Positions 7,569 to 63,400 of a stretch of DNA of 64,000 nucleotides are shown one piece after another. Position 1 is the stretch's first letter; each line of letters opens with the position of its first letter. Source of the stretch: Amoebophrya sp. A120 (lineage: Eukaryota > Protista > Dinoflagellata); NCBI GenBank assembly GCA_905178155.1, contig CAJINV010000012.1:2258166-2322165 (forward strand), in the 5' to 3' direction. Both the position numbers and the translations under genes were made by a program. The notes below the pieces were generated by a model. That model was not told where the DNA came from and did no database searches. It saw nothing but the letters and a program-made list of their open reading frames with translations.

Positions 7569-8580
7569 CTAAAAAGCCAGCTATCCTCTGCAAAAGTATC
7601 GCACTGGTATAAATTATGCAAGTCTTGCATTACAAATCTTGCTCCCAGGAAAGCAAATCAGCATGACAAATTCCATTTCTCGCGCTGAGGAAATTTGTAA
7701 TGCAATTTATACTAGTGCGTTAGTTTTGCAGTTCATACCAGCGACGCCCCCGCATCCAGTCGCCCGACGACTTTTTTGAAACCTAGCTGCCCCAGAATCG
7801 CGTTCGTTTCCTCCAGGGATAAACCCTTCCGCATCGCTCTTCTGATCGCCAGTTTCCGGGGCAGATCTTGGTAGTACTTCATCTCTTTAAACGCCTCTTT
7901 CGCCTCAACAAGCGCGTTTGTGTCGCTGATTCCATTCTTCACGATTTTCGTGATCATGTGCTGTCTTTCCTTGACCCGCCTCTCCGACTTCCTCCGGAGG
8001 AACTCCGGGTGGGATTGCTGCAACTTTTCCATTATGAAATGCAAAAGCATCGTAGTCGTACTAGCAGCAATCGCATTACAAATTATTGGCTCAGCATCAC
8101 AAATGGAATCTCTCATGCTGACTTACTTTGAAAGAGCGATTTGCCATGCATAAACGCGATTACTTTTACGACGAGTACGATACTTTTGCACAGGATATCC
8201 ATGCAACCGCGCGAAGTTCCCAACCCGATTGCGAGGGAATTTCGGAGCGATTTCTTCACTTCCTGGTCGTCTAGCAACGTGCCGAATTGAAACGCGGTGG
8301 AGGAGAGCAGTCGGTTCGTCTGCGTTAGTGTCTCTTCCAAAGAGGACAGTCTTGGTGGCGGCTCGTAGTTGTTATTGGCATTGTAATCGTTTATCGTTGT
8401 GCTAGTACTTCGAGCAGCTCTGGGCGACGAGGGTGATCCGGCCAACTTCCCGAGCGCGACCGGGAGTTTCGGGACCACCTGGACTTCGTGGAGCTCCGGT
8501 GGGGTCCGCTCGCCGGTTTCCAAGCGCGGAGTCGACATGGCGTCATCGTCCTTGCCGGCGTCTAGTATCGAGGTGGACAT
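7569..8580 (-). CDS. Hypothetical coiled-coil protein, paralogous to the central part of gene 14432-19894; two introner insertions; start uncertain
   Basis: Removing 8033-8197 and 7582-7737 (each plus one repeat) gives ...TSRGCMEKLQQSHPEFLRRKSERRVKERQHMITKIVKNG...ASLAF*. Confidence 0.7.
7582..7737. mobile_element. Introner/MITE family A
   Basis: Ends tatcctctgcaaaagtatcgcact...agtgcgttagttttgcagttcata; 5-bp direct repeat ccagc. Confidence 0.92.
8033..8197. mobile_element. Introner/MITE family A (opposite orientation)
   Basis: Ends tatgaaatgcaaaagcatcg...cgatacttttgcacaggata; repeat tccat; removal restores C-M-E-K-L. Confidence 0.95.
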
Positions 8581-19894: not shown

Positions 19895-20997
19895 GATGGT
19901 CGTGATAGATTATCAAGCGACGTTGACGTTGGGATTGGACTAAAGGTCGTGGAGTTAGATCATGCTAAGTAAAGGCACCATACAAATCTAGTGAAGTGAA
20001 AACAAAAAGGAAATACATGCTTGCCGGGAAGGGTATCATGGGTTGTACAACAAATGCAGCACATATTGTAGACTACTAGAACTAGACAAAGAAACTACGA
20101 AGAAATATCTTGGCGGGTAAGGGTATTGCTGAAACATGGTCGTGAGGTCCTGGTGAAAAAAGTTTCAACAAGGCAGACGCAATTAAAAACTTAGACGTAC
20201 ACTTTTCTGATAAACAAATCATACGAGTCCTCGGTTCGTTCGACCTGCACTTTATCAAACGGAAGATGGACGTGGTGTCGTGTACGATTGAAGACGAGGA
20301 CTGGACGAGTCGAGCAGTATTAACGACGCATGAATAAAAGCACAACTTTTACGACCGATGGATTCTGTACTGCTACGCGTTTTCGCGACGACTATATCAA
20401 GAACCGAAACTCGTGTGTGGTTTGATTTCAAAACACCGACCGGAGCAGCGCAGCTTTAATACGCACGAAAACGTCAGCGTATGATATGCTGTTTTGCAAA
20501 ACAGTAACGAGACAGATTCGAAATCGCACGGAGGCAAGTGTGTGGTGCCTATGCGTATCCGAAAATAGCCGTATGTGCGCAGCTTGGAAGCAAGTTGTTG
20601 GCTCGATTTTCATCTTGCTATCGCCATTCGTTCTAATCTCCTGGCGTTTCTGAAGAAACAGCGCACAACAAGCAGGTCCTGGAGTTTTAATAGCACTTGT
20701 CCGATATTGAAATTTCAAACCCGTCAAAAATCGTACATATTTATTGGTATTTTTGAGAATCCAAGAACTTGCATGTCAAGCTGTATTCTCTAGGAGACTA
20801 AAGAGGTCAGATCACATACAAGCAGTGAAAAGTTTTTACAAAGTATCTGGAATACAAGTACAAGTAGTCGATAGGGGTGGTCCTGGTCTCCCGGCGGAGG
20901 TTGGCGCACAGAGCAGGTGGCAGTACTAGTTTCATCAGTCTTCACAACCAGAACTTATGACCACAACCTCTTTATTGGTTTTGGTGCTCGATGATCA

Positions 20998-21846
20998 TTA
21001 GTACCTCGCTAAATGTACGTAGTTCGGGTCTCTCGCCCTCTCAATGTCGTACATGGTACCGAGCTCGCCGCTCCACGTTCTTGTATCCGTCATATTTTGC
21101 AAGTCCAGCGCCCGGTAGTTGGGTAACCGATTGTGGCCCAGGAGGGAACTCTGCCCCGCGCCGCTGACGTGATATGACCTGCTCAAACGTTACAATCTCA
21201 AACGTTACAATCTCAAACGTTACAATCTAGACAGAGTTTGGATATCTGTGATGCACGAAGTGCATGATCTAGCCAAGTCTCATAGGACTGCGCATGACAA
21301 GTTCCGGAGTCCCAAACCGCACTACAATCTGCGGAAATTTGTGTTGCAGAAAGTGGAATGGTCTGCGAGTCTGTCATGCTCATTATGCAAGACAAATCCC
21401 AGATTCTATTGTAACATTTGAGAAGATTGTAACGCTTGAGCAGGTCATACGTGAGTCACTTGTTTTCTCGTCCTCTTTTGGAAGTAGTGGTAGACAATAT
21501 CCGGGGTGCAATAGAGGACCATGCAATAGGCGAAGGGGAGTATAGCTGTAGAGATTTTGTTTTGCTTTGTTTTTGTGCTGAGGCTGGGAGTTCAACTTAT
21601 AGCTTTGCATGACCAGAAGAATTATACATACGTACTTAAAGTGCGCCGTTCCATAAAATTAAAAACTTGAATTTGATGCTTCGAAAGTAGAACAAAAACT
21701 GTACCGAATCCAATCAACGCAAACAGCATGACCATCGCCCGGTCGGGGCTGTCTTTGAGTTGAAACCCAGCCCACGCGGATTGGACGGACTCCCAAAAGG
21801 AATTGAACCCCATGGCGGCGAGAAAGCCAGTGCTTACGACCACCAT
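20998..21846 (-). CDS. Small hypothetical membrane protein
   Basis: GT-AG intron 21546-21635 plus introner 21173-21449 give a continuous frame; hydrophobic segments AMVMLFALIGFGTVFVLL and ILPFAYCMVLYC. Confidence 0.75.
21173..21449. mobile_element. Introner/MITE family H with subterminal 15-bp tandem repeats
   Basis: Ends tatgacctgctcaa...ttgagcaggtcata; repeat cgtga; ctcaaacgttacaat x3 at about 21182-21226. Confidence 0.95.
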
Positions 21847-23278: not shown

Positions 23279-26200
23279 TCACGCATTTATCGGCGGGTGG
23301 TTGTCTGTGTATTCTTCCTGCTCGCCCGGACGGGAAGACGTGGAGAGCTGCATGATATGATCATCGTCGTCCGCCCCTATAACTCGATCAGCACTCTCAT
23401 TTTCTAAGTGGGTAATGTCATTCAAGGCGTCCAGCGCAGAGACGTTCCCTGCTGCCATCGTATAATTCCGACCGAAGGAAAAAGACGACCCGCTTGCATT
23501 TTTCGCACAAGAGCTGGACCACCTGCGCAATCTCAAACTCACTTCGTGCAGGAATTCGGGACTCGCGATGGTGAGATCCCTGCTCGGCGGCTGGGGCTTT
23601 ATTTTGTTGTCATAAGTTTGACGTCGATCACCCTGCCGCGATTTTGACTGGTTTTGATTTCTATCTGCGTATATTTCCCTTCTAGTGTTCGCGGTGGACC
23701 AGGACCGAAACAGCCCTGCTTCAGCCGGTGCAGGAGCTGATTGACCACGGTCGTCGTTGTAGCAGTTGCTGTCATGTGGTGGATCTTCCCGATGGCCATC
23801 AGTGGTTGATGTTTCGCCGCCGGCGCGGTCCACCAAGTCATCTTGTGCACCTCCTGTTTTAACACTCACCGTCGGCCGGCGGAACTGTTGCAACAGTACC
23901 CCATCGGACGAGGCCCTCGGCGGAAGATCTTCATGCAATCCAGATTCTGGATCCAAGGCGACAGTCCCAGTCGTTCCATCCTGCTCTTCCGGCATCAAAC
24001 TCGGAGACGGTCGCGGGTTGATCAGTTTTGCCCGTCGGGTTGGAGGTCTAGCCGTGGACAAATGTTGTTGTTGACTGTTTGAGGATGTCTCAGGGAAAAG
24101 GATCCCCCCGCCGGGTGTCCTGCTCGCGTTGCTGGCTGACGTCGTATAATCCGGCGACCTGTCGTCTGGTGTGTCTTCCCTTTATCCAAGAAAAAACACC
24201 AATTCCCATCCAATTCTTTGTCATGCAAAACATGCAGCATACGCTGCATGAGTCATGCTGAACTAGGTGGGGATAGGTTGATTTTTTCTGTGAATACGCT
24301 TACAGTGTAGTGGTCCACATGGTGATCATCGTGTTGTAGTTGGTCTCTTGCGGGGCTAGGGCTGATGCTGGTTCCACGTATTTTCTCAATAAGATCTCTA
24401 CTCGACGAGAGTGCAGCGGCCTCGTGGAGAATCTTCATAGAACTGGTCGCAGCACCAGTACTGCTAGCCGAACGAGTCTCGTTTTCTTGGGTCCGTGGCG
24501 GAGGAACAACATCAGAAGTAGCCACATGACCCCTACTACTAGCTGCACCTACCCCCCCTTCCGGCGGCGGTGGACTCGCAACACCAGCTACAGACGCCGA
24601 CTCCTGCCGCGGCTGGAAAGGGACACTATGATCTCCCAGCGGTGTGAGAAAGCCCGGTTTGTTAGTGCCAAGAGGTGCATGTCCTTCATGTTCTTGGTCG
24701 TTCTCGCCTTCCTCGCGAGGCAGCGGATTTGTTTCCGCTCTATCACCGGCGTCAGGCGATGCCGTCATGGAGAGAAAATCGGTGCCGGATTCGACATCTT
24801 CTGCAGCCCCCGGTGAGGGGGATGGCGAAGCGGATATACTGCGACTCGTCGGGGGCTGAGCTCTACCACCACCTTCAATATTACCACTTGCCAGATAATT
24901 GCCGGGAGACGCACGACCATCTGCGACTGGGGATCCAGAAGGTTCCCTCCGGTTCCGGTTGCTGCGACCTCCTGGTGCTGCCGAATTCGTACTTGCTTCG
25001 GGTGCGGTCCTCGTTCTTTGTAATTGGCCAGCGGTGGGCGCTTTCTCGGGAAAAATGTTACCTGCGGGCGCAGTGAGCCACCGCTCTAGTGAAGTTAGAC
25101 TGTTCACACGAGGATTTCTTGGCCCAGTCGAAGATGCGCCGTCACCAGGAAGATCCGCGCGAACGCCATGCTCCGGAGTGTGGTGATTATTGACGCCGTT
25201 CCGTTGTTCTTTGCGGTCGTGGTGTTTATTGCGAGGCAAGTTGCGCTGTTGCTGTTGCTGCTGCTTTGAAGCTGCACTACTGGAAGATCCAGCAATTGCA
25301 GGTATCGGAAGCGTCAAGGTAGACGTCGGCGACAGAGAAACGGCTTTCGGTGGTCGACCGTGCTTGTTCGACGACGTGGTCCCGATTTTCTTCTGACTCT
25401 GATTTTTACCAGATGAACCTGCATGCGGCAGGAGAACAATTTGACCGCTACCCGCGCCCAGCTGCGTAGAAGTTGCGCTGCGCCCGCTTAGATGTATGCC
25501 CTTGCCATGATTCCCATTGCCTGTTCCTGAATGGACAGAAGTCGTAGATTGATGCACAGAGTTTCTGTCGTGTGCAGTCATCCGCATCCTTTCGCGCTCA
25601 ACAAGAACGACCTGATCGCTGTCGTTACTACCAGCACTACTAGAGGCCGCTGCCGTGCCCGAATTTGCAGCTCCTCCTGCAGCACTAGAGCCACCACCAC
25701 CACCACCAGCCGCTGCCACGCCGCCTTTAATACCTTGTTGAAGAGTAGATCCGCTACCACCATTCGATCCAGCATTCTGCTCCCGAATTAGAGTTGTACT
25801 ACCGCCCCCGCCTAGATTCAGCAACGCCGTGGTTTTCGTGGTCAAGTACTGGAAGACAAACACCGTGTGCGGCGCCAACACGATCAACAACGCCAGAACC
25901 AGCGCTATCGCTGCAAGGGTTAGGAGAAAGTAAATCAGCCGCTTCTTCATGGCGTAGTGTTTCGTGTGATGGTGCGCTGGTGACGTAGTTGTTCCGGTGA
26001 AGGGCGAACCCGAATTGTTCAGGTTAGCTTTGATGTTCGCAATCGTAGTTGATGTCACGCCTTGTGATGTTGTAGTTAGTACTACACCGTGTTTAATATT
26101 TTTCATCTTGATCAACATGCGCTGCGGTGTGGATTTCGAAACACCAGGTGAAGTAGATGACTGCTGCTCTCCAAACTGCCGTCTGCGGTTCTTTGGCAAG

Positions 26201-29725: not shown

Positions 29726-31923
29726 TTACTTCATCCTTTTCCAGTAGAAATTCCAATCCAGCAATTTTCCCAACTCAAGTTCCCGTTCGATGAACAGATT
29801 GGGGTCAAATTTCTTAAATTCATCGGCCCACTCATCGTCCAGTTCCCAGATGTCGATCAACTCCAATTCCCACAGCTTGCCCGCCATGAGCACACAGTAC
29901 AACGCGTCCCATTTGCTGTTCCACTTGAATCCGTTTTCTCCATCTAAAGCCTCGAGCTGTCCGCAGAACGCTTCCGCGGTATCGCGGGTTTTACTCCCGA
30001 ATTCGATTATCTCCGTCCACTGCTTGCAGAGGTTGCGGGACTCGAGGGAGCATTGTTTGATCGCCGTTGGGGCGCTGAGAAACTCCGGCTTCGAATTATC
30101 TTTGTCTACGCTAGCTGCTTCTCCTTCTGCTGCTGCATTTTCTTGGCTTATTATCTTTGCCTGCACCAATAGTGGTTTCAGAATTTCTATTGCGTCGCTA
30201 CATCGAAATCTGTTTTCCATTTTTTCCTCCAATAGCCCGCTCATTAAGGTCGTAAATGGTGTGCCCGGCTTTAATTTTTGCTTAAACTCCGCCAACTCCT
30301 TGAATGCGTCTCTGTCCCGCTCCGCTTGTATCGTTTTTTTCTGCAGAATCTCGGAGAAGATCACACCCATGGACCACATATCCGCCCGTTCGTCGTAGTC
30401 CTGTCGGCCCTGAACCACCTCGGGTGCGATGTACGTACTTGTGCCGACCTATCAACCGCAAATATGTCTGGGTCTGGAAGAGTGCAAGGCTTGTCATGCA
30501 TGTTTTCCATGACCCATAACGCCTGTAATGCATGACCTAGCCTCACAGAGTTTTACAAGGCTTCCTGATGCCTATTCCGCATGTCAAATGCCCTCCCCGC
30601 GTAGCACAAACTGGAGCTGGACTCCTCTTGATGGTCATGCAATACAAATCTCTTTCGAATCCAAACACAGCATCACAAGTTCCATCCGTCCAGGCCCAGA
30701 CACATTTGCAATGCATACGACCTCTGCGGTGAGCTTCTGCTTGTTCCCCTCGGCGTTTTTGTTCTGCTTCTTCCCTTATCAAATGTAAAAATGTCTGGGT
30801 CTGGAAGAATTCATGTTTGTCATGCTTGTCTGGCATGACTCTTAAATCTGTCATGCACGTTACCCAAGAGCTCCGTTTTTCTGTGATGCAGAAGCGCAGT
30901 TTGTCATGCAGAATAGGCAACACCTAGGAGCTCAGAAACTTGTCATGCTGAGCCAGCATTTGTAGCCTCATCATGAGACGCCACCCAGCATCACAATTTT
31001 CCAGACCCAGACATTTTTACATTTGATATCTCGTGTTTTTCCTTCCGTTTTTGAGAAGCGGATTTCTTGGATTTTCTCACATTTTTATCTTCTTTGTGGT
31101 CGGAGAAAACGGGATCCTTGCCGAAGAACTTGCACAGGGAGAAGTCGATTAAAACGGGTTTCAGCATCGTGGTTGGTTTACTAGAAGATGTTGCTGGAGT
31201 TTTATTCCCATTCCCGGATGAAGCAGTTGTTGGTGCCGCACCAGCTCCAGCGACTTCTTCGTCGTAAACCATGATGTTGTCCGACTTCAGGTCTCGGTGC
31301 ATGATCCCCAAATCGTGGAGGAATTTTAACGCGAGAAGGCTGTAGTACATGATGGAGAGAGAGTCCTTCTGCTTCGTTAGCTGCATGTATGAGAGTGCAC
31401 AACTCCTCCTTCTCCCCCTCATTTGTATAGCATGACCAGCAAAAATACAAACACCAGCTCCAGCACACGTGTATTTGTGCATGACAAGTAGCTTATGCAC
31501 GGATTGTAGTGCTGTTCTTTGAGCTTCCAGCATTTGTCATGCAAACAGGGGAGGGGGACGAGTTGTGCACTGTCATAGCTTGTTCTCGATCAAGTGGTAA
31601 AGATCTGACTTAAACTTGGGCATGATCATGCACAGCCCGCCCTCTTCGATCGTCGTGATGTCCAAGCACGGGATAATTTCCCGCGGGTAGTCCCTTATCT
31701 GGCTCAGCAGCCGCAGCATGGCGATCTCACGGAGCACGGCGGAATCGATGTCACCTTCGTCGGACTCCTCGAAGCGTTTGGCGGCAAATTCCTCCCCGTC
31801 CTCGTTGTACACCACCATAACGGAGCCGAAGGACCCCTCGCCGAGCGCGTTGGTTCGGAAGTAGGCGCCATGTTGGAGGGGCTTGATTTTTGCTGGCGGT
31901 GTCAGTACCACGGGGGTCGTCAT
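29726..31923 (-). CDS. CDK-like Ser/Thr kinase fused to a C-terminal cyclin-box-like domain; 3 introner insertions
   Basis: LGEGSFGSV, AAK, DSAVLREIAMLR, HRDLKSDN, DFS, GTSTYIAPE, ADMWSMG; C-terminal LYCVLMAGKLWE...FIERELELGKLLDWNF. Confidence 0.9.
30450..30717. mobile_element. Introner/MITE family B
   Basis: Ends tatcaaccgcaaatatgtctggg...cccagacacatttgcaatgcata; repeat cgacc; removal restores AEVGTSTYIAPE. Confidence 0.95.
30777..31028. mobile_element. Introner/MITE family B
   Basis: Perfect long TIR tatcaaatgtaaaaatgtctgggtctggaa; flanking repeat degenerate (tccct/tctcg); frame still restored. Confidence 0.92.
31388..31577. mobile_element. Introner/MITE family F
   Basis: Ends tatgagagtgcacaactc...gagttgtgcactgtcata; repeat gcatg/gcttg. 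Confidence 0.93.
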
Positions 31924-32424
31924 TTTGGTGTGCGAGGGCGGTCGGTGTCGCGGCTTATTGTTATTTCAAGTCCAACATGCGAAAACAAAATTAAAATATG
32001 AAGATGAACTGTAATCTCAGTTGCCTTAGATACCGCATAGGTTCGGTTCCGCTGTCTTGTGAGTGCTAGACTGATCAAGAAAATTTAGAGCCTGAGCAAG
32101 AGCCTGTGGGATCTTGACTACCTTCAGCTTCATGATCACGTACTTTACTATACATCCACAGCAAAGTAGTGGCCCATCACCTCTGAAATCTGGCTCCTGA
32201 GCAAAAGATGCACAGCGCACCAGCTTGCACTCAAAAGCATTTAGTGAAGAACTTGCACATTTATCGTCGTAATTTCGTATACATGTCCTGAACAAGGAGT
32301 CGGTGCCGCAGCACTGAAAAGGCCGCTGCGGGAGCTGTGGCAAGCCAGAGGAAGACTGGCAAATAAATCGCGCCAACAATTTCGCTGCTTCATTCGTCGC
32401 TACTTCAATACTTATCCACTTCAT

Positions 32425-34749: not shown

Positions 34750-35866
34750 GGTGTGCGGGTTTCTTTGGGGCTGCTGCGGAAACCAAATTAGTTCTTGCTT
34801 CAGGAAATAAAACTGAAGATCAAATCGATGAATAGCAGCTGAAATAGTTGGAGTCGTGGGGGGTGATGAAAACTACTCGCTTATTGGAAGTCGCATTTTC
34901 AGAAACTTGGAGGTCGTGTGGGTCAAGAAAAGTGTCATGGTGTTGAGCTTCACCTTGTGGGGGACAGAAAGTAATCCAGATAAAAAGATAAGAACCTGCA
35001 CTGAAAGCGGTGAAATAGAAAAACACGACGGTTAGAAATGGTTTCGAGTCCACTTCTTCGTGGAAGTCATATGTCCTTCACCACAACGTAGTAGACCGAG
35101 TTTGCTTTTCTACTTTTCAGGTTAAAAATTGATCCTCTTGATGCTCGTCTTGAGAAAGTGCCTGGAAGATGGTGAGCTGGCCTGCTCCATTTGGTAGCAG
35201 CAATAAAGGAAGATCTTGTACTAAGCAAAGACAGATCTTGTACAAGCGCAACCCCAACCCTTTTTTTTTGCTATATTTGAATGAGAAGTTATGATTCTCC
35301 TGCTGCAATTGATTTTGCTCTTCTTGAACAAGTATTCACACATATCAGGGTTCGTCACCGACAAAAAAAACACATCCACTCTACCCACGTACTCACACAC
35401 AAAGCCTGCTCCTACAACACACAAAAAAAGACGGAACAATGCCGAAAGCTGTGCGGCGAAACGCACTGTTATCGAGGAGCGCCAACGCTCCTAAAACAGC
35501 GTCGGTCTCCGGATCATTAACGCGTTTGAAGTGACGGACCCAAAATGTTGTTGAAACGATTGAAATTCTATCTTTATTGCGTTTGGCAGACAAGCAGAAA
35601 CAAGTTTGCATTTTAACAGACAAACAGATTGCAGAGCACAAAAAGATTGATTTGTCTTGTGAATTAGTTGCGATTCGCAGACCGAAATTTTTCTTATTTA
35701 TTGTTCATTGATACAACTTCAAGTACCAGAGCAAAAACTTAAGTATCCATCGAAACTCCGAACTGAGATGAGATTAAGCTCTCAGCTGCGTCAGAATGTC
35801 ATCTTCACAACAATGTGCAAGAAGAAAAACTACCTCCACATAAACCATACCCCTCTCGAGGCCCCT

Positions 35867-38800
35867 TCACAGCGGCCCCGTCGCATGCCTTCCGACGTTT
35901 CCCATATTCCCCACATGCGCGCCGTCATTTTCATCCCTGCCACTGAACATGTGCGCCAGACTGTTACCCCACCTTGCGAACCGGTGAATCCAACTTGGGA
36001 TCGCCATACTTGTCATCCCTAACAAAACCTGTGCAAACTCGTCGGAAAACGTGCAGCAGTTGCGGCTCAGCAAGTCGTACGAATTGCCCTGCCACGCCCG
36101 CTCCATTGCCCCGACGATGTTCCCCAATTCTTCCACCGACAGGTACGTGTAGCCGAGAAAAATCGACTCGCGGTACTTGTGGGTGTGGTGCTTTATCCTG
36201 TGCAAAAGTATCGTACTCGTAGTAATTGCAATCATGCATATACAAATTTCTTTCTCAAGTCCAATCCGCATTACAAATTTCATTTCTCATGCTGAAGAAA
36301 TTTGTAATGCATTTATACGAGTACGATACTTTTGCAGTGCATATGCTTCTTCGGCGCGTGGGTCTCCACCCCGGTGCCGTGGGGAGTGTACCCGAAGGAA
36401 AATTCTCGGTTGTGCACCTCGATCCCCGCGTGGAAAACGCCGCCGAATTTCAGCATTTTGTTGGAAAAAACAAAGTTCAGATTCTTGATTTTCTCCGCCG
36501 CGTCTTCGTTCATCGGAGGGTCCAGGTCGTAGACGTTGACGTAGACCGGGACTTGCCGCCAGTTCAGCGGGTTGAGCTCGAGTTTCTGGTGCCTTTGCTG
36601 AAGGGCTGATGTTATGAACTGGAAAAGTATCGCACTCGTATAAATGCATTACAAATTTCCTCAGCATGAGAAAAAAAATTTGCAATGCTGCTTTACCTTA
36701 GGGAAAAGATTTGTAATGCATGATTGCAAGAATACGAGTACGATACTTTTGCACGGGATAGATGTCGGCGCGACGTCAGGCTGGATTAGAGGGGTGTAGT
36801 AGCGGCTGGACATGGAAGCTTGTTCTACCGGCGCACCTTGGGCTCCTGCCGCTGCTGCTGCACCCATATGATGTTCTCGCCAGGCGATGTAGTCCACTCG
36901 GGCGGTCTGCGCACCAGACGAGCCACCAGATGGTTGGTTCGTAACAGAAATTACCGGCTGGTGCATAACGTGACTTGCAGGATTTTTGATGTTCAACACA
37001 TGTTGATGTCCTCCAGCAAACACCAAATTCGATTGCTGCATTTGGTTCGGCCCGTTCGCTTGTGCTGTGCAAAAGCATCGTACTCGTAGTAATCGCAGTC
37101 ATGCATTACAAATTTCCTTCTTAACCTAAATCCGCATTACAAACTCCATTTTTCATGCTGAGGGAATTTGTCATGCGATTTCTACTAGTACGATGCTTTT
37201 GCATTTCATATCGCCCGGAAGCAATCTCGCACCCAGGGCGACATCATCATTCCCGTCTCCCGGTTGACAAAAACTGAGGAGAAACTGAGCCTGTACCCGG
37301 CTAGAACACCCCCAGATCCACCGCCTTTCTCAAACTCGAACTCGAATTTTTGTGGTGCGCCGTATTTACTAGTTTGATGTTGGCCATTCAGATTCATTTG
37401 CGATTGCATTTCCACCAACCGTTTCGTCAGCTCCGAGTCATAACTCCGAAACTTCGCAGTGCTGAAATAGGTGTCGGGAGGTATCCTGTGCAAAAGTATC
37501 GCACTCGTAGTAATCGCAGTGATGAATGACAAATCCTCTATCTTAGGGAAATCAGCATTACAAGCTCCACTTTCCTTCTTGGCAAAATTTGTCATGCAGT
37601 TTATACTAGTACGATGCTTTTGCAATGCATAGGAGGCGTGCCGAACCCAATGTGATTTAAGCGGTAGGAAACCGTGTTCGGGTAGTTTTCGCTGTTTCTG
37701 GTCACAAACACCGGCTGGAAGGAAAGGAGCAATTCTTTCTTATGCATTGCAAAAGCATCGTACTAGTAGAAATCGCATGACAAATTCGCTCAGCATGACA
37801 AATGGAATTTGTCATGCTGTTTTCCCTTGGGATGGAAGTTTGTAATGCATGATTGCGATTACTACGAGTACGATACTTTTGCCCAGCATATTTCTTCGAA
37901 AACGCCAATTGGTTTGCTTCCGAGCTGGAACTGCCGGAGTTAGTCGTGTAAAAGTGAGCTAGTTCCCGATCCACCGCCTCACCACCGTTCTTAATCATGT
38001 CCTTCGACACTAAAAGCTTCGTCCGGCGGGTCTCTGTTTGGTCAAAAACGAAAAATTTCAAGTCGCGGAGACCGTAGAAGTTGCCATCATGATTCGTCTG
38101 GGCGTGGTTCATCTTGTGCTGCTGGTTATTGTTGTTCCCGTTGTAGCTGTTCACAGCCTTCTGCCACTTCTGCTCCCGGTCGTGATTGATCAAAGCAAGC
38201 TTCTGCTGAATTTCACCGCACTGGTAGCAAATTTCTAATCTTTGGCTCTTGCAATAAGGGTTCTTGTTGTTCATCGAGCTAGAAGCCGCGCGTGCTGTCG
38301 CAGGCGCCGACGCACCATTGGTATTGTCGCTGGTAGACGTCCCAACAAACACAAAGCCGTTCGTGAAGAGTTTCTCGACCATTTGCCTTTCCACATTGTC
38401 GATGGTTTGTTGGATTGCGATCTGCCGAGGATCTACTTGCTGCTGCTGTTGTCCTCGTACTCCACTTCGATCGGTCACCGCACCGGAAAACGCCATTTTG
38501 CCAGGAGCAGCTCCAGGCAACACTTTGCCTATTACCCTTTCCGCTTTACTCTTGTCGAAGAAATTCTCGTAAAAATCCTCCTCATCCAGGTTTTCCAGAG
38601 TGGATGCACTAGCTTATCCACAAGAAATAATTTCCCGCACATGTACAACTACAAATGCAGTCGCTGCATGACAAAACTTGCCTTCAGTCCTAGTCTAGCA
38701 TGACAAGTTGGACACTGCAAGTTAGGGAAATTGCTCATGCATTTTGTACATGTACGGGAAATTTGTCTTGCATATACCTGAACCTGATCCAGCCCCTCCC

Positions 38801-40632
38801 CCGCCGGCGAAAAAGCTCCACAGATCTTCCTCGTAGTCCTGATTGGAAGTTTGCTTGTAATCCATAGTTCGCAAGTAGTCCAACGTCCTGCCGCGCTCGT
38901 TGGGGGCGTGTTCCGGAAAGTTCTGCATGTAGTCATCCACGCGACCGCCGCGGCGGTTGTTGGCTTGGGGTATAACGTTGTGGACTGTGCTAGTACTAGC
39001 AGTGATGTCCGCGGCTTCTAGAGCACCACTATCCTCACCGGAGGAGGAACTACCTGACCTTTTCTGCATGAATTTCTTGAAATACCGCCTCGCCGACGGG
39101 GTTTCGAACTTGTCAACCCGCTGCAACATTTGTTCGTCGTGGTAGTTCTTACTGTTTTCATCAACATTGTTGCTGTCCAACGTCGGAAACAATTCGCTGA
39201 CGTTTTGATCCACAAGCGCGATATTCCTGCCTGGAACTACGGCCCCGTTTTGCAGCGGAGTCACTTTCTCTTCCCATTCTACCTTGTTCAATCGCTTCAT
39301 CTCCCGGAACCGTGCTCTATTCTGTGTGTTGTGATTCGCATTCATCCGCCCAGTTGTACTGCTATCATCTATCCCGGATAATCCGAGAAACAAGCTGGGC
39401 ACGTTGATCCGCTCGTCGTTTACCAGAATTAAGAATCTCGAGTCGGGCTTCAAGAGCAGGCTGTTCTTCAAAATTTTCTCCCTCCGCTTAAACAATTGCT
39501 GTAGTTGCAACCTGTTCTTAAACATCGTTTGCGTGTAATCGTAGGAAAAGGTCGCCATCGGGTCAACTCGGATGTCGAAGTCCTTTACTGCGTCGAGGAT
39601 TTCGGAATTTGACTTCGCATTCATCAGCTCCGGAGTGATCATGAAATTCGCTCTTGGGAGGTGTTTATTTTGCGGAGGTGCCGCATTGACATTGACATTG
39701 AGTTGCGGTGTGGTCCTCCTTGCGGTTCTTCCGCCCGTAATTATAGGCCGCGAAGATGATGAAGCTGCGTTTACTTCATGGTCTTCTACTGTAGTCGTGG
39801 TGCCCGTGTGCGGTCGCCATCCGGGCTGCTGCGGCTGTCCTTCTTTTGTGGTCCTCGGCCCACCTCGCACGCCATACTGCTGCATATGGCGTTCTCAAAC
39901 GTTACATTCTCAACTGTTACATGGTTTGTCATGCAAAATTGCCTTCAGAAGCGACACCATCAAGTTGCTTCGCATGACAAATTCTCAGAGGGCCAAATAG
40001 GGTGATAATCGGCGCCAAGTCTGTCACGCAAGACGCGCAAGATCGCCCCTATCACTTTTGCCATTCTTGCATCACAAATTCATGTAACGGTTGAGAATGT
40101 AACAGTTGAGAACGCCATACTGCACCGACGTGTAATGTACCGCTTCGTCCAGAGACGGCGTAGTTCCTCGGTCAGCATTATTTTCGTATGGATTTCTTCC
40201 CGGCTTTTGGACCGCATGATGAGATGAAAATCTATTCCCGCTGTCCGAAAAGGGTGCAAACTGATACGCGGAAAATTCCCGGCCCCAATCGTCGATTGGC
40301 TGCGGTGGAGCTGCGACTGGCGGTGCGGTATCTTCCTCTTTCACCTGCGGAATCACCTCTGTCTGCTCCTGCACGAATTTCGTGTTGCGCCCGAGGAAGA
40401 GCTCAGGAAGGGGAAGAACGGAAGTTCTTGATGATGGGCTCCCCGTTCTTGTCCCCCGATTAATATGCAAGCGTTGTAGTTCATCAAAATCATGCTGGTG
40501 GTGCCCGCGGCCGAAAGAGCCAGGTAGTGGGCGATCCGCGAGGGCGAAAGGAGCAAAGAGCGGGTGAAATGAAACCGTAACGAAAGGAACCAGGAAAAAA
40601 GGAGAGTGAGCGAGCCACATCTTATTCAGCAT
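35867..40632 (-). CDS. Long protein with signal-peptide-like N-terminus and C-terminal PPPDE/DeSI peptidase domain; 7 introner insertions; start could be 41016
   Basis: All seven removals keep one frame. VYVNVYDL, GGVFHAGIEV (catalytic His), YDLLSRNCCTF (catalytic Cys), IPSWIHR. Confidence 0.85.
36194..36343. mobile_element. Introner/MITE family A
   Basis: Ends tatcctgtgcaaaagtatcgtactcgta...tacgagtacgatacttttgcagtgcata; repeat tgctt; lies between the catalytic His and Cys codons. Confidence 0.95.
36613..36760. mobile_element. Introner/MITE family A (opposite orientation)
   Basis: Ends tatgaactggaaaagtatcg...cgatacttttgcacgggata; repeat gatgt. Confidence 0.95.
37061..37210. mobile_element. 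Introner/MITE family A (left end TGT)
   Basis: Ends tgtgctgtgcaaaagcatcgtact...agtacgatgcttttgcatttcata; repeat tcgct/tcgcc. Confidence 0.93.
37482..37631. mobile_element. Introner/MITE family A
   Basis: Ends tatcctgtgcaaaagtatcg...cgatgcttttgcaatgcata; repeat ggagg. Confidence 0.95.
37741..37890. mobile_element. Introner/MITE family A (opposite orientation)
   Basis: Ends tatgcattgcaaaagcatcgtact...agtacgatacttttgcccagcata; repeat tttct. Confidence 0.95.
38615..38774. mobile_element. Introner/MITE family C
   Basis: Similar to 19051-19201; repeat tagct/tacct, which on the sense strand gives AG|GT...AG boundaries. Confidence 0.92.
39885..40119. mobile_element. Introner/MITE family H
   Basis: Ends tatggcgttctcaaacgttacattctcaac...gttgagaatgtaacagttgagaacgccata; repeat ctgca. 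Confidence 0.95.
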
Positions 40633-44312: not shown

Positions 44313-46177
44313 TTATGCCCCCTCCAACCGGTACCGTCTTTCCGCCTCCCTCTTGTACTGAATCAACTCGTCCCCCTTCTGCACTACCATGCCATCTATC
44401 GCCGAGTCCGGGAATTTCGCGAGCTCTTCATTCGTCAAAACCTGCTCCTTGTCGTCTTTGGACTTCTGTTTCGGAACTTCCTTTTCTAAAAATTTCTGCC
44501 ACACGCCCGGCTCACTCGCGGCGCCGGGAATCGGCGGTCCGATCTTCTCGAGGGAGTCGGAACCTGAGGGTTGTGGTAAGATCGTTTTCTATTTGACAAC
44601 GCATGAGAAAAGTGCATCATCCTTCAGATCACGCATGACAAAGTTAAGTGGCGCAAAGTTCGTATCTTTATTACCTGCCGGAATGCACAGCGGTTTGGTC
44701 ATGTCGAGACAGGGTTTTGCCGTCGGTGGCGTGTTAAAGAGCAGGCCCTTCAGGATACCTGTTTATTTTCGCATGATTAAGTTTGAGTATGTGCTGCAGG
44801 CAGCATTGCACGAGAAATTGATCTACTCTATCTGCTCTTAATCCTGTTTCTAAGTTACGGGCTTCCGCACCTCGTCCTAATTCATTGAGCAACTCTCTCT
44901 GCATCACAAACACTCACCCTGAAAGAACAAGTTCGTATTATACCTCGATAATTATTCATGCTCGTTTTCTCCTGCACTGCGGTCGTGACGAAGTGTCCAC
45001 ACAAAATGTGTGCGAAAAACCGCAGTCCCCGAATCAGCACTTTCCGCAGCTCCGCGTCCATTCTTCCAATCATCAGATCGTACTATGCATTGCAAAACTA
45101 TCGTACTAGTATAAATTGCATTACAAATTTTCCCAAGAGCAAAAATGTAATTTGTCATGCTATTTCAGGTAGAAAGTTGGATCTGTCATGCATAGATATC
45201 TGCAATTAGTACGAGTACGATACTTTTGCACAGGATACGTACTTCGCAACCACGATTAACAGCGGCACCGGGAAGGGCCGTAGCTGCTCCTTGTTCGGGA
45301 ATTTCTCAAACACCTCTGCTGGCTGTAAGTCCGGTCTTGTATCAAGTGCAAAAATGTCTGGGTCTGGAAGAATTCATGTTTGTCATGCTTGTCTGGCATG
45401 ACTCGGGAATGTGTGTTGCATAGGCACGAAAAAGCCCTCTTGTGATGCAGCGACGCAGTTTGCCATGCGGAATACGTTGTAAGACATGGCAGCCAAAAAA
45501 TTTGTCATGCGTAACTGCGTATTGCAGTGCGTCTATCATTCATTTTTAGCATTACAAGTTTCCAGACCCAGACATTTTTGCATTTCACATCTTGTACTCG
45601 CGGACAAATTCGGATTTGCCGCGGCGATTTTCGAACGGAGTAGGCTCGTCCATTCAAGGAATGACTGCAGGATGTTCCCAGGTTCCGACCCGTCTAGAAC
45701 GACACAACATAACATGTTATTTGATGATGTGGAGGATGAGGATGTTGTAGTAGAAGTGCTTGTGCTTGAAGAGGAGGAGGAGGAACTACTTGCAGCTGTC
45801 GTTTTCACGACTAGATCCGCAAAGACGTCCAGCCCGCTGTCGTACAAGTGCGCGACGTTTTTCCCGCTGCCCACCGCCGCATCCGTGCGGACGAATTTGT
45901 AGTCCAACGCGACGGTGGACTTCGGAAAGTCTTCCTTCGATGGGTTGATGAAACGCTCCACTAGTGTTGTCTTCCCGCACTTCTTTTTCCCGACAAAGAG
46001 ACAGGTCGTGTTGACGGACTGGGACTGGTTGGAGGTTAGGAGACTGTTTTCATCTGCTCCATTGTTTTCGTTCTCTTTCTCGATTAGCTTCGCCGAGGCC
46101 GGCGTGCCGAGCTTGTCCCATACCGGCACGAATTCGCTCTTGGAAGAGCTTTTTGTGCGGGTGGAGGAGGAACGCAT
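44313..46177 (-). CDS. DYNC2LI1: Cytoplasmic dynein-2 light intermediate chain 1
   Basis: P-loop GKKKCGKTT, PKSTVALDY, RPFPVPLLIVVAKYD, LRFFAH, DMTKPLCIPAGSDSLEKIG; introners 45340-45589 and 45084-45237; GT-AG introns 44759-44943 and 44564-44674. Confidence 0.9.
45084..45237. mobile_element. Introner/MITE family A (opposite orientation)
   Basis: Ends tatgcattgcaaaactatcgtact...agtacgatacttttgcacaggata; repeat cgtac; removal restores the conserved K-Y-D. Confidence 0.95.
45340..45589. mobile_element. Introner/MITE family B (right end ACA)
   Basis: Ends tatcaagtgcaaaaatgtctgggtctggaa...ttccagacccagacatttttgcatttcaca; repeat tcttg. Confidence 0.95.
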
Positions 46178-47305: not shown

Positions 47306-48309
47306 TCACGCACAGTAGACCCACTCTCCGTTCAAATACACGCGGGAAAGCAGCTTTCCCCGGCCGTCTTGGGTCACCATGGTCATGCGCTTGAAGCGGT
47401 TTTGGGTCAGGTAGCGTTCCGCATTCGGCTTTTATCAAAAGAAAAAACCCCTCCTCCCCATATCGAAGCGGAAATCTGTGATACGGGATCTGTGTACACA
47501 AATCGGCTCTGTCTTGCAGTAGAGGACTGCAGGCAGATACAGAGCGGGAGTAGGGGCCTTTTGGTGTAGGCGTCAAGCAGGGCAGGCATATCCTCCGCAG
47601 GCCCTAAAGCATTACAATGGGCATGCAGGACACGGCAAGCTTTTTGGATTTGCGTTCTTGCAATACAGAGACGATTTGTGGTCTCCTATCAGCATCACAA
47701 ATTTTCAAAAGTATCCTGGTTTGGTATGGAGAGGGGGGATTTTTCCTCCCAATAGCTTTTCCGGCCAGGCCTCCGGGGCCGGTTTCAACGCAGTACCGGA
47801 TTGGGTGCGGAGGAGGGTGGCTTGGCTGTGGTAAATGTAAATGATGTATACAACATAGTGTGGACTAACATGAACGAAGGAAAGAAAGTTTGTTTCCTCT
47901 ATCAAGCTAGGAGATCAGGAGTTCGAGTTTGTAGTGGGAAAACAGCATGACAATGAAATACGTGTGATTGGAAAACCAAAACAGCATGACAAATAATAAA
48001 TACGTGTGATTCTGTTGCTTCTCGATGAGCTCCGCATATTTCTTCTCCGCTATCCTGTGCAAAAGTATCGCACTCGTAGTAATTGCATTCATGCATTACA
48101 AATCTTTCATTTGAGGTAAATCCGCATTGCAAATTTTGTTTCTCATGCTGAGAAAGTTTGTAATGCATTTATACGAGTACGATACTTTTGCAATGCATAT
48201 CCGCGGACTGTCGACACTTCTTCTCCTTGGTAAACATGTACTTCCGCCAGGCGTCGTCTAAAAGCCAATTCTCGACCAAAGGCCCTTTGTTCGGACGCGG
48301 GACGGGCAT
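47306..48309 (-). CDS. Small hypothetical protein, 4 exons
   Basis: MPVPRPNKGPLVENWLLDDAWRKY...EWVYCA*; introners 48051-48199 and 47433-47754; GT-AG intron 47826-48003. Confidence 0.8.
47433..47754. mobile_element. Introner/MITE family D
   Basis: Ends tatcaaaagaaaaaacccctcctccccata...tatggagaggggggatttttcctcccaata; repeat gcttt. Confidence 0.92.
48051..48199. mobile_element. Introner/MITE family A
   Basis: Ends tatcctgtgcaaaagtatcg...cgatacttttgcaatgcata; repeat tccgc. Confidence 0.95.
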
Positions 48310-54300: not shown

Positions 54301-55209
54301 GTTGTCGAAGGCGGTGTAGTTGACGCGGTTCGTTCTTTTTTTTTACTGGTTATTTCCAGAACAAATATCTTTTACCAGGGCGTCAAGATCAAGAATGAGA
54401 ATGTCCGAGAGGACGATTCCAGACTGCAGCGTGTTCTTCGCTGTCTTGCGTTGTTTGTCGGAGTTGCTGTTTGTGTCGTCTAAACGTCGAAAAACGGAAA
54501 TGGATGAGCAGCTACTTCTACTTCGCCTGATCGTGAGCTCTGCTGGTTTGAGATGAGAGTGGTAGACAGCTGCGAGTGGTGCGTTTATATGTCGAAAATG
54601 GAAAATGAGTGAGTACTCGTTCTTCAAACAACAGGTTTTTTGGGTAAGGTTAAATGAAAATTGTGGGATGTCGTAATTTGTGAAAGAATTCCTCATCGGG
54701 AAACTGTGTCGTTAGTTGCAAACGAAGATAAGAAATACGAGCACCAGGCCGGAGAAAACAACATCAACCCTTTGCTCGCCTCTTATGGCCTGCGAGTGAC
54801 TGTCTGACATATACAGAAAACATATGGGGTCGTCAACGTTGTATTTGCCTCAGACCGTAAAAAAAATTCTGCGCGCATTTTTTCGCGGCGCAAAGCTAGT
54901 AAACCTGTGCACGCTAGTGAGGGGCTGACTTGAACGCGGTTTGTTTTACCTAGCTTGTCAGCAACACTGCTCCAGTAGGTAAGTGAGTATTGACGCGAAG
55001 GGGGGCGGGGCGCTGGGGGTTCTTCTGTGGCTGATGTTTCCACCTAGAAAACGCCGGGCGCGCGCAATATTTTTCTCATTTTTCCGGATTGCTCTCTCCG
55101 TGCAGCTATTTGCCGCTATGGCCTGGGTCAGCGTGTGAGGCTGGAAACGCCCCGCGAGATGTCTACACAGGCCCTGGCCTCGTCGTCTCTAGCAGGCACC
55201 ACGCACACA

Positions 55210-55420
55210 TGTTGGCCGCGAAGGCCTTTCCGGAGCCCTTCCAAAAAGGGGGAGCCGGAGGGGTGCCCGGAACCCTAAAAAAAGCCTATTGCTTTTTCTT
55301 CGAATCACGATGGTGCTACCCCTCCCCAAAAGGGGTCCCGGAACCCCTCTGGGAACCCTTCCCGAAAGGCTCTCGGGCTTTTCGCATTTTGCCGAAAAAG
55401 CCGCAAAGGCAAAATGCGCG
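55210..55420. repeat. Unclassified GC-rich repeat/hairpin block
   Basis: Recurrent ggaaccc and aaaagggg words; perfect 11-bp stem cgcattttgcc (55383-55393) / ggcaaaatgcg (55408-55418). Confidence 0.5.
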
Positions 55421-56579: not shown

Positions 56580-58506
56580 TCACATCATATCATCCCCTGG
56601 CATGTCGAACTTTCCAATGTTGTCAATATCGGACTGCTTCGGCCCGCCCGGCTGGTACGCTTTTGACATTGCCTCGCCGATGATGCGTTTCATGCTGTCG
56701 TCACCCTCATCGTACATGTCTTTCATCATGCTCATGATCCCGCCCGTTGCATCCGCCGCTTTCCCCTTGTTCGCCTGTTTTTCGTCCTCTCGCTTTCGCC
56801 GCCCCCCGACGTCCGTCCAGGTCTCGTAGCTGATAGTGTTTTTGTAGTTGTACTTTTGCATGACAAGATTTACAGCTCCCCCTCTTTGTGCACCATGCCA
56901 CAGCAGATAAACGTGCTGAGTAAAAGTAAATTCCCTTGCAGCTATAGAATTATTCTATCATAGTCTTTCGAGTTCGAAGTACAACTCAAATAGGAGATGC
57001 ATCAAAGAAAAAATCCTTTACTTACCCCATCGTTCCTCCCTCCACCTTCTGCATGGTGATGAGCACGTGATTTTTCTTCACCGAGTGCGACGATTTTGCC
57101 GCCACGATGTCGTTATGAAATGCAAAAGAATCGTACTAGTATAAATTGCATTACAAATTCACGTAGCATTACAAATCAAATTTGTAATGCGGATTTGCCT
57201 TAGTAAAGAGATTTGTAATGCATAAACGCAATTGGTACGAGTACGATACTTTTGCACTCGATAGTCGTGCTGCAACGCGGTTCTTCTGAACCGGTAGTTT
57301 ACCCTGTTATGGGTGTGTCAGGATTGAAATCGACAAAGTTGAAATAGTTTGCGATGCATAAAATGCAACGCAGAAATTGTCTCTATTGCAAACGATGCAA
57401 GGGAGGCAGATTACAAGCCTGCTGTGGGGTAGAAATAGAGCTGCTAAAGTAGCATGACAAAAGGCGTCGTCCTTACCCAAACAGCATGACAAACTGGATT
57501 TAGGCTCTACCCAAGTTTGTCATGCGCCACTTGGAAACTGGGCTTCAACTGGCATCCATTTTATGCATGGCAAATTATTTCAACTTTGACGATTTCAAAC
57601 CTGACGCTTCCATACCCGTCCAGGTTTTTCACTTTCACATCCAAACTCATCCGGGTGAACTCCGTTGTGATGTTATCAAAATGAAAAATCCCCCCACCCC
57701 ATACGCGAACTTGAAATTTGTGATGCAGATTTGTGGCCCTGGCCACAAATCTTCAGCTTTGTCATGCTAGAAGGGAAAAGATGCGGACTGTAGTGCTGGT
57801 TGGCGTGGGCAAGCCTTGCATCTTCAGCATGACATGGGGTAGCTGGGAGTGGGAAACAGCATGACAAATTGCCTGCAAATGAGGCCACAGCTGCGTCTCT
57901 TGGCCTTCTAGCATTACAAGTCGACTTGTGTACTCAAATACAGCATCACAAATTTCGTTTTCGATATGGGGAGGGGGGATTTTTCATTCTGATAGATGTT
58001 TTCGGCTGGCAGATTTTCCACGCCTTTGAGCCGCAAGTCCACGACGACCTCCTTGTCGTTGTACCCACCGCCCTTTTTCATCTCGTAGATGCTCACCTCG
58101 GTCCACCTGAGAGATTTTTAGGAGTTTGTTTGTATGTAGGGAGTTTGGTATGCAAAATCAAAATGAGCCGTTCCTCTTCCTCGTTACATCAGGAGATCAT
58201 GGTGGTCATCTTCAAGACACTACTTACATATTAATATTTCCAAGTAGAAGAGGCCACTACTTACTTCAAATTCGCGTCCGATGAGGCGCTGGCGCCAGCT
58301 GGCGCTGCACTCGCCTCGCCGTGGGTCTTCAATACGTCCATCGCACCCGTATCGTCGTCCAACACCACCGGTTTCGGCCGGGTTTTCTCGATCTGCGCCT
58401 TGCTCTGCTGGATTTGGCTGGTTAAGAAGTCTTTTACCAGTGGTCTCTTCGCGTGTTCCACGAGCTGCTCGAGCTCGGCGACATCGAGTTCCGAAAGGCC
58501 GCCCAT
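56580..58506 (-). CDS. CACYBP: Calcyclin-binding protein / Siah-interacting protein (CS and SGS domains)
   Basis: DVAELEQLVEHAKRPLVKDFL, SLDVKVKNLDGVNYRF, GIMSMMKDMYDEGDDSMKRIIGEA; three introners plus GT-AG introns at about 58107-58264 and 56830-57025. Confidence 0.92.
57114..57263. mobile_element. Introner/MITE family A (opposite orientation)
   Basis: Ends tatgaaatgcaaaagaatcgtact...agtacgatacttttgcactcgata; repeat gtcgt. Confidence 0.95.
57308..57614. mobile_element. Introner/MITE family E
   Basis: Ends tatgggtgtgtcagg...cctgacgcttccata; repeat cctgt/cccgt; removal restores LDGVNYRF. Confidence 0.95.
57674..57994. mobile_element. Introner/MITE family D
   Basis: Ends tatcaaaatgaaaaatccccccaccccata...tatggggaggggggatttttcattctgata; repeat gatgt. 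Confidence 0.95.
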
Positions 58507-60443: not shown

Positions 60444-63400
60444 TTAACCACAGAGGGACTGGGCCACGAGCGCGATCGGCATAGCCAGCAAGGTATGAAT
60501 TGCAAAGGCGTCGCACAAGTAGTAATTGCAATACAAATTCGCGCAGCATGACAAATGGAATCTGTAATGCTAATTGACCTTGGGAGCGAGCAGATTTGTA
60601 ATGCATGGCTGCAATTACTACGAGTATGATACTTTTGCAGTGGATACAAGGCAATCGGAGTGAAGATCATCATCGGGATGCAGTGCAGCTCGCCCTTCCT
60701 GACCGCGGGACCGTCCGCCTTCGCGGCCGGCTTGGCCGCGGCCGCACCACCGGCGGTGGCGGCCGCCGCCTTCGGCTTACCGTCATCCAGCACCCCGATC
60801 ACCGCGTCCGGGGCGTACTTTCCAATCACATCCGGGGGGTGGATCATGTTAAACTCCTCGGTTGCGTCCTTACCCGCGAAGGTCAGGATCGCCAGCGCAC
60901 CACCGGGGTGGTCCGGGAGAAACTTGGTCACATCCAGGACCTGGCCGTTCACCACGACCCAGCAGTCTGTTTTTAGTTGTTTTGATCATTTTGTAAGTAT
61001 GTCGTCAGCGATCTCGTCAATATATTGTGGTCCAGCAACATCATGCTCATGCACTTGCACGGCGGATTCCGCAACAAAAATTTAAGTTTAACTCGTGGTG
61101 TGCATCTTCGATTTACATTGCAGAGTTTGTACCACGAAGCAAACAATCTATCACTATCATGCATGAAAATCGATGTTATATATTACCCTGCTCCGTAGTG
61201 TGCTTGGCGACTTCCGCCAGGGTGTAGCCACCGCTTCCCGCACCCGCGGCCGCCGGAGCACCCTTGTTCGGCTCGTCCTCGTAAGAACCACCGGACAGGG
61301 CGGACTTCTCGGTACCGCCGCCGGAGATACCGCCACCAGAAAGCTCGCGCAACGAGGTAGCCTTCAACGACGAACCGAGCATATACTGGGCGCAGCTGTT
61401 GTTGAGGTGGTTTTTGATTCAGGATCTTTCTTGATCTTGTCATGCTAAACAGAAGTGCGGCACACTTTGCCTCCCCCTTTGTAAACGGCCGCAGATGGCT
61501 GTCACGCAGGGAATGTAGGTCAGGCGATCGTTGCACTAAAGAGCGAAAGCGTCATGTCAATCATGCATGAGAAACATCAAAAAATATGCTCTAAAAGTAT
61601 ACGCCTTTCCCGCGACGCGACCGTAGACCACGCAGTCCAGCAACGAGTTGCCGCCCAACCGGTTGTTTCCGTGGACGCCACCCATCACCTCACCCGCCGC
61701 GTACAGACCCGGAATGACTTTTCCGCCCGCGCCAACCACCTCGGAGCTGGTGGTGATTTCCAAACCGCCCATGCAGTAGTGGATAATCGGGGTGATGATC
61801 GCGACGTAAAACGGCTCGGAGGCGAACTGGGAGCCCGGGATGATGTTGTGGAAGAACTTCTTTCCCGACCCGGTCTTGCCGGACGGCTCGTCCCAGGTCT
61901 TGCCGCTGGGGTAGGCCGGGAACGGGCCACCATCCGGATCCTTCTCCATCTTCATCGCAGCCTGGTAGTGGGCCTCGTGGGCGGCAGCCATGCGCTCCAC
62001 CGGAACACCGAGGTCCTTTGCGAGAGCGGCACCAGACTCGTAGAACTTCATCACGCCACGCCCGGTGTAGTGCTTGCAGTGCCAGATGATTTCTTCGGAG
62101 GCAGCCTGAGGTTTTAGGTGGAGGTGGTTATGATGTTGACTACGCTTGTTTTTTTGGAGAGAGATGTTCAAGCGTGATGGCATTTTTCTGACTGTTACTG
62201 GAGAGGCACTGATCATGCATGCCCGCAAATTGCACATAAAATGTATTTACAGTTTTACCTTGTTCAAGCACAGACGGAAGGGTCCCTTGTTCTTCCACAT
62301 CTCCCCGGTGACGTAGTCGCGGCGACCCAACTCGTTGGCGAACCGGTTGCCATCGGCATCGAAGATCAAACCACCGACACCGCGCAGCGCCTCGGCGGCC
62401 AAAAACTTCACCTTCGCATCGGGGTCCTTGGGGTTCACCAAACCGGTCGGGTGGACCTGCACCCACTCCAGATCGATGGTCCGCGCACCAATGGCTTCAC
62501 CCATCTTGATACCGTCACCTGCGGATTTGATGGTATTGTTTTCATTCTACTGTGATGAGCAGTAGATGAACACGACCCATCTTCAAAAATAACGATCATC
62601 ATTCTCTTAAGGTTGTACAGCAGACGAGCTGGAAATTTAAACTACCGGTGCAGTGCTCGCCATTCGAGGTGGGCAAGTGCATCAAGTCCGGGCGGTACTT
62701 GGCTAGCAGAGAGTCCTGGGAAAAGTCGGCGCCGAACCCGCCAGTGGCGATGATGACCGGTCCCATTTCCTTCAGCATGGAGCCACCCTTTTCGTAGTTG
62801 ACCCCGACGACCTTGCCTCCCTGGAAGATCAAGCTGGTGGCCTTCGCCTTGGTGACGACCTTTGCCACGGACCCGTTGGTCTTCTCGGCGATCTTCTCCA
62901 CCATCTGGATCAAGGCGTAGGTGATGGTCATACCCGGGAAGCGCTCCTTACCACGGTGGGTACGCGGGGCGGAGTGACCACCCAGACGGGCGACCAGAGA
63001 GAGGTCCAGACCGAACACGTCCATCAACCAGTCGCAATCCGGACCAGAATTTTCGGCGAGGACCTTTTTTTGTATTGCAGAATTTTGCATGATGCGTTGT
63101 CGTAGCTGTTCTGTAAAAGTTCAAGTTTGGAATGCATATGACTAATGAGAGCTCAAAGTTGTATTGCAAAAGTCACATATTATACCTTGACCAACTCCGG
63201 CTTCTTCGCACCACCCTTCAAGCAATCGTTGGTAAACAGCTCCACGGAATCCTCAATTCCATTGGCGCGTTGGGTCTGTAGTGGTATTGGTAAGTGGTTT
63301 AGGCATGACAGACTTGATCCATCATCTTGGTTTCACATCTTAAATTGCAAGCGTAAGCTTGCAGTTTGAATGAGACATGCAAATTCCCGAACAAAATCCA

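Follow-up and report, generated by a model that had tools for sequence, protein, structure and literature searches.

Short transposon-like elements inside genes of Amoebophrya sp. A120 are missing from RNA-like contigs whichever way they face, and where the two copies of the flanking 5-bp duplication can be told apart, the transcript keeps the upstream one. The best reading of these results is likely a symmetric element that is removed by asymmetric, hairpin-guided splicing of pre-mRNA. The analysis was centered on 64,000 nt of contig CAJINV010000012.1 (the window, to which all positions refer).

The PPPDE host gene and the orientation of family A elements

The host gene (35867..40632, minus strand) contains seven elements and encodes 1195 aa with a PPPDE (Peptidase_C97) domain at the C-terminus. 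Pfam family PF05903 was matched at positions 2-64 and 68-138 on the two exons flanking the element at 36194, that is, as consecutive parts of one domain. A search with one exon found the public protein P0001 (1195 aa, labelled Amoebophrya sp. A120) with 100% identity to the exon query, and the translation of the host gene spliced in silico with all seven elements removed is identical to P0001; the public A120 gene model already removes all seven. Two homologs align over the 36194 and 37741 junctions with zero extra residues. A single open frame runs across the five family A copies of this gene (36194-37890) once each element and one repeat are removed, and it is broken if both repeats or the elements themselves are kept. 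Five such continuations would be expected by chance at about (1/3)^5 = 0.4%.

Repeat search and anchor scanning gave 11 copies of family A in the window, each of about 150 bp. Every copy has TAT...ATA ends except the one at 37061, which starts with TGT; a stem of about 21 bp (positions 8-28) lies within the element and a site-specific 5-bp direct repeat outside it. In the PPPDE gene, the copies at 36194..36343 (duplication TGCTT/TGCTT, within the PPPDE domain), 37061..37210 (TCGCT/TCGCC) and 37482..37631 (GGAGG/GGAGG) are in orientation 1, and those at 36613..36760 (GATGT/GATGT) and 37741..37890 (TTTCT/TTTCT) are in orientation 2. The duplication is perfect in 4/5 of these, with one mismatch at 37061. 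Outside the gene, alignment placed the copies at 7582..7737 and 48051..48199 in orientation 1 and those at 8033..8197, 45084..45237, 57114..57263 and 60494..60646 in orientation 2. A preliminary description of this DNA had given the same five coordinates, the three-to-two split in the gene and a five-to-six split over the window, and both counts are borne out by pairwise alignment of whole elements and by the interiors alone (35 nt cut off each end), which reproduce the orientation of 11/11 copies. It had told the orientations apart by end type (tatcctg versus tatgaa/tatgcat); the orientations are right and the labels only a tendency, as the 37061 copy starts with TGTGCTG and the supposed tatcctg-type end of the 37741 copy is TATGCTG. 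Its statement that all copies restore the frame also holds: the six copies outside the PPPDE gene, which lie outside the stretches compared with RNA-like runs, gave minus-strand read-through in silico, the 7582 copy being a weak test because a stop lies just a few codons away. The same description had set the elements against the polarity of spliceosomal introns, and canonical splice sites are indeed unused: a U2-type GT/GC donor with an AG acceptor is offered by 0/11 family A copies in any of six registers.

Orientation was then counted in a second set of sequences. The exact family A end pattern was found at 153 metagenome-contig loci, 152 of them from one assembly; the other (L087) is a chance match without an element and was rejected. 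The 152 loci, from an assembly that may differ from the strain of the window, carry 272 elements, 140 of family A, and a reversed-sequence control gave 1 element versus 116 in 40 loci. Host strands in this set were predicted by a codon model, with the window as training sequence, and not from RNA; 27/28 of the model's confident window calls were minus. Among the 60/140 family A copies passing strict filters, orientation relative to the host strand was 32:28 (p=0.70), so a count against the transcript, of the kind that had been suggested as a check, shows no bias. Of 13 loci having at least two copies on one strand, 6 contain both orientations. Removal of the element plus 5 nt opens the frame in 48/91 long-flank copies, compared with 17-28 for other lengths and 1 for the retained element. 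Hairpins are predicted to fold on both strands (z -2.4 to -11.6). In viral contigs the family A end pattern had 0 matches. At five loci (L005, L021, L034, L042 and L080) the flanks of the family A copy are without a clear 5-bp duplication; if these copies are still spliced, the protein would be altered at the junction.

Family A is one of at least nine families among 33 TAT...ATA elements with 5-bp duplications in the window (7582-60646), of which a stricter detection script recovered 30 with no extras. Their removal opens long minus-strand frames. A GT/GC-AG register of any kind is available in 5/33 window elements and in 10/115 elements of the second assembly, where the 5-bp repeat is perfect in 214/272 elements (up to two mismatches were allowed in detection). 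The elements have the hallmarks of MITEs, i.e., terminal inverted repeats, a fixed-length duplication, small size, no coding content and many copies. The PPPDE gene also harbors an element of a different family at 38615..38774 (mismatched duplication TAGCT/TACCT) and one of a third family, family F, at 39885..40119 (CTGCA/CTGCA). The family F ends (TATGGCG) resemble a Euplotes IES end consensus, and in an RNA run from another strain (X9) 2 of 3.3 million reads were placed, both at the end of this element and too few to be informative.

Several further features of the window were recorded. A 977-nt element (54823-55799) has the same TAT/ATA ends and a perfect duplication, and its three longest ORFs were without a Pfam match. 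Short internal TGTCATGC-like repeats are common to many elements across families and are possibly binding sites of one mobilising protein; copies of this motif outside the catalogued elements (852, 44633, 47945-47984, 56858, 61438 and 63303) may be decayed elements or pieces of ordinary introns. Judged by eye, the minus-strand frames around 60494 and 57114 presumably encode a cytochrome b5-like protein and a CS-domain protein, and 29729-31965 presumably a protein kinase-like product. Rfam gave 0 matches within the window.

Skipping of the elements in RNA-like contigs

Transcripts were represented by four of 11 listed runs (X3-X6) that consist of contigs with one shared sample code, so that rare forms and levels are invisible in them, and whose RNA status is our guess, as it is not on record. 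In X3 and X6 the depth is zero over 34755-35416, where a DNA-like run (X1) has a depth of 43-45, and a canonical GT-AG intron (21546-21704) is skipped in 4/4 RNA-like runs. A 97-nt exon separates this intron from an element at 21173, and both are skipped in the same runs.

All seven elements of the PPPDE gene are skipped in the RNA-like contigs (X3 record 11, X6 record 14), each as the element plus 5 nt. The junctions at 38615 (X3 and X6) and 39885 (X3) are directly contiguous, and the five family A junctions were deduced from two gaps in the records, 264 and 370 nt long, which equal the exons expected after removal of the element plus 5 nt. The five family A copies are therefore missing from the contigs irrespective of direction, which agrees with the earlier proposal of excision in either orientation. 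Between 14400 and 34300, an exact joint of this kind was found in RNA-like runs for 8/13 catalogued elements. These include a family B pair in opposite orientation (15010-15264 and 30777..31028), both joined out. For the elements at 16909, 18745, 19051, 19336 and 19642 the RNA-like runs gave no joint, their host gene being thinly covered. The minus-strand frame at 14435-19909 has 1240 codons and seven elements, with RNA joints only at 15010 and 16187, and the family C copies at 16187 and 16909 are in opposite orientation within it.

At every such joint both TAT/ATA ends leave with the element and the variable outer 5-mer remains once. The preliminary description had the segment bounded by TA with its repeat left behind; the retained repeat is instead the outer 5-mer, and a TA...TA reading in which one TA is left was ruled out by the junction lengths.

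Junction polarity and routes of removal

Eight window elements have mismatched duplications, five of them in stretches compared with RNA-like runs, and these show which copy stays. The transcript retained the upstream copy for 5/5 elements and in 16/16 run-by-element observations. The upstream base was kept at position 4 of the duplication for the element at 24183..24296 (joint 24177-24297), at positions 1 and 3 for 30777..31028 and at position 3 for 31388..31577, each in 4/4 runs, and, from piece coordinates, at position 3 for 38615 and position 1 for 37061, in 2/2 runs each. For 37061 the upstream copy was deduced, as the piece ends at 37055 and no difference is listed at 37215 in X3 and X6. 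At the 24183 joint one letter fits both sides, which leaves only the final one or two registers for the junction. A single register shared by all elements would therefore be register 4 or 5, in which 0-1 nt is removed before TAT and 4-5 nt after ATA; the two are indistinguishable because the window elements are without a mismatch at position 5. The element at 38615 has an available GT-AG register that would give the other base, and it is unused. The upstream-copy rule was seen on minus-strand genes, and it is confounded with the elements' own polarity; since the minus strand encodes every host gene of the window, the upstream copy is also always the right-hand copy. The duplication itself has no base preference (115 elements of the second assembly), and its mismatches are evenly spread over the five positions (10, 12, 11, 11 and 10 in 48 elements).

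Three positions of the inverted repeat (1, 3 and 21) vary with the direction of the transcript. In a set of 254 elements, variants of the terminal T number 0 on the 5' arm and 7 on the 3' arm, and those of the third base 5 and 0, respectively (Fisher p=0.0013; p=0.029 in a strict set of 168; the counts are small). At family A position 21, 30 copies combine a 5'-arm T with a 3'-arm C (read inward) and 3 copies have the opposite arrangement (p=1.4e-6), with 15:1 in the strict set and 4:0 in the window, where the 36613 and 37482 elements both have T on the transcript 5' arm opposite G on the 3' arm. This polarity is present in all four strand-by-orientation classes, 0/300 permutations were as extreme, and the apposition in the transcript is U-G rather than C-A. 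Strand-biased mutation was rejected as the source, as A>G and T>C changes were 54/2052 versus 49/2061 in the repeats and 180/3162 versus 181/3130 inside. A general wobble-pair signature was rejected too: G-U and A-C counts were 37 versus 34 in the stems minus position 21 and 50 versus 65 in other families, and the stems thus do not show broad selection on RNA pairing. A U12-like RTATCC donor was likewise discarded; a purine precedes TAT in 24/33 window elements and in only 65/115 of the second assembly.

We hold it probable that these transposon-like introner elements are removed at the RNA level, in a polar and hairpin-guided manner, although intermediates of splicing were not observed. A DNA transposase or integrase would have inserted the element with a 5-bp stagger, and the predicted hairpin, whose stem (positions 8-28) measures about 21 bp, would fold in the pre-mRNA. 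Because the ends are inverted repeats, an element in either orientation begins with TAT and ends with ATA on the transcript. The 5' cut would fall at TAT or one base earlier, and the 3' cut 4-5 bases beyond ATA, presumably placed by distance without a sequence cue. On a speculative view, the intron would start with N-T-A/G in register 4, resembling a GT-A/G donor whose first base is relaxed, and the branch nucleotide might be the A at -7, which is the constrained one in the 3' ATA. The Amoebophrya spliceosome is reported as nearly complete, with U2, U4, U5 and U6 found for A120 and U1 undetected in these genomes (PMC7789003). The non-canonical pairs published there begin with NT in 9/9 cases for A120 and with TT in 9/9 for A25; this table fits a T at +2, the pairs depending on where the aligner placed the junction within the repeat.

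A broader claim is that Amoebophrya has a general RNA-level eraser of transposons, which would remove any TAT...ATA hairpin in either orientation and from any target, the downstream duplication included. We regard it as tentative, with a chance not far short of even. Such an eraser would be a structure-and-ruler splice without an acceptor sequence that reads few polar bases (the T at the 5' end, the A located 7 or 8 bases ahead of the 3' cut, and family A position 21), and it may branch at that A. If true, it would add a third code for nuclear splicing to GT-AG and that of Euglena, and it would account for the tolerance of tens of thousands of exon insertions.

Within the hairpin-guided RNA-level reading, the cutting agent could be a relaxed spliceosome or a separate enzyme, and the spliceosome is slightly favoured. 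A separate non-spliceosomal machine acting on the same RNA geometry, as proposed for Euglena, is possible, with a chance plainly below even. The acceptor sequence is absent altogether and the GT-AG register at 38615 is passed over, as such a machine would allow; Euglena introns likewise pair a motif, with a 5' spacer of 3 nt and a 3' spacer of 5-6 nt (PMC12501133), and have been reported to leave as circles (PMC11282704). However, the invariant T at the would-be intron +2 and the purine at +3 look donor-like, the four snRNAs are reported for A120, and in tunicates MITE-derived non-canonical introns are reportedly removed by the spliceosome.

Programmed DNA elimination in the style of ciliate IESs would have the element cut out in some life stage and transcripts made from the trimmed DNA. 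No split between germline and soma nuclei is known for the Amoebophrya lineage, which we counted against this route. The precise, orientation-neutral loss that leaves one direct repeat and the transposon-like ends are what it would produce, and an unrepaired reverse-integration joint might likewise show the upstream copy in transcripts. Yet in the DNA-like run the elements are present at the depth of single-copy sequence: X1 contigs cross 12/14 flank-element junctions of the PPPDE gene at a depth of 39-44, that of unique DNA, four of them by at least 31 letters, X1 being a single sample of contigs that may be the source sample of the window and whose life stage is not on record. An empty-site joint was absent from the 15 joints listed for X1 (316 more lie beyond those). 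In addition, one copy was kept in 16/16 observations with no mixture, identity of the repeats is not needed, and the bases that vary with direction are polar to the transcript. The IES parallel drawn in the preliminary description is accordingly weak, its sound part being the precise loss with one repeat left, and we consider DNA elimination very unlikely.

Comparably slim is the chance that the junctions are reverse-transcriptase template switches over the hairpin and direct repeats, with the mRNA retaining the element. All junctions come from cDNA-derived contigs, and hairpins accompanied by direct repeats are known to give rise to false non-canonical introns (PMC4176328). Against this, reverse transcriptase would reach the downstream copy first and be expected to keep that one, whereas the upstream copy was kept, even at position 4; a duplication with 2/5 mismatches was skipped exactly in 4/4 runs; and contigs with a retained element were not evident at interior positions of the PPPDE gene in X3 or X6, in a type of data that drops rare forms. 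The template-switch reading would also require ribosomal bypassing between matching codons, of which any 5-mer holds one in frame.

The preliminary description had favored a symmetric signal, which is in line with the neutral orientation counts and with hairpins predicted to fold on either strand, but a wholly symmetric signal in the RNA, with cuts placed evenly on both sides of the hairpin axis, is the least probable route of all, as the base constraints at positions 1, 3 and 21 are polar and, if one register holds, register 4 or 5 (0-1 nt on the 5' side, 4-5 nt on the 3' side) contradicts a symmetric cut.

Comparison with known systems

The element class is known, since the ends match the published description of A120 introner elements and P0001 equals the in-silico splice. 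Farhat et al. (2021, PMC7789003) described inverted repeats of TAT, seven variable bases and at least three A, direct repeats of 3-5 nt (5 bp in the legend of Fig. S19), non-canonical junctions supported by RNA-seq, and 1,954 families; the border position is called unknown in the Fig. 3 legend. The window elements share the end pattern, direct repeats, repeated families, non-canonical junctions and absence from transcripts, and the published portions consulted indicate no difference in the element itself. The orientation neutrality and the polar junction rules are apparently unreported. The text and supplement text of PMC7789003, figures aside, contain no statement on orientation, junction register or DNA-level excision; orientation independence or the junction register of Amoebophrya introners was not found in the accessible portions of PMC12130899, PMC9860276, PMC11282704 and PMC11453091, nor were these rules found in openly licensed papers and preprints, although the 2021 figures may show part of them.

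The literature has left the removal mode of Amoebophrya introners open since 2021. Orientation neutrality combined with a polar junction speaks against DNA elimination and a cDNA artefact and leads to predictions for the ends of the excised RNA, a possible branch base and three key bases. Mismatched duplications allow a purely computational, genome-wide test of polar removal.

In Polarella glacialis and Aureococcus anophagefferens, introners with TIRs and TSDs also form introns in either direction (bioRxiv 10.1101/2020.10.14.339549, with Huff et al., 2016, cited therein). The splice sites of these introners are GT/GC/GA and AG, supplied by the element or the duplication, and there is a bias for one orientation, whereas Amoebophrya family A is without a canonical register (0/11; elsewhere 10/115) and without orientation bias.

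The nonconventional introns of Euglena are alike in terminal pairing, a proposed MITE-like origin, the lack of GT-AG and a 5' spacer shorter than the 3' one (Nomura et al., 2025, PMC12501133). Their reported signature is N3-CDG / CHG-N5-6 with a purine opening the next exon. The Amoebophrya elements depart from it, having TAT/ATA ends, spacers of 0-1 and 4-5 nt and no purine preference after the junction.

The TA-IESs of Paramecium and Euplotes share with the elements described here a short length, a transposon origin and precise, orientation-free loss from coding sequence, and they are cut from the DNA of the somatic nucleus with one TA left (PMC3464196). In Amoebophrya, by contrast, both TAs are removed, a variable 5-mer is left, and the elements are present in the DNA-like run.
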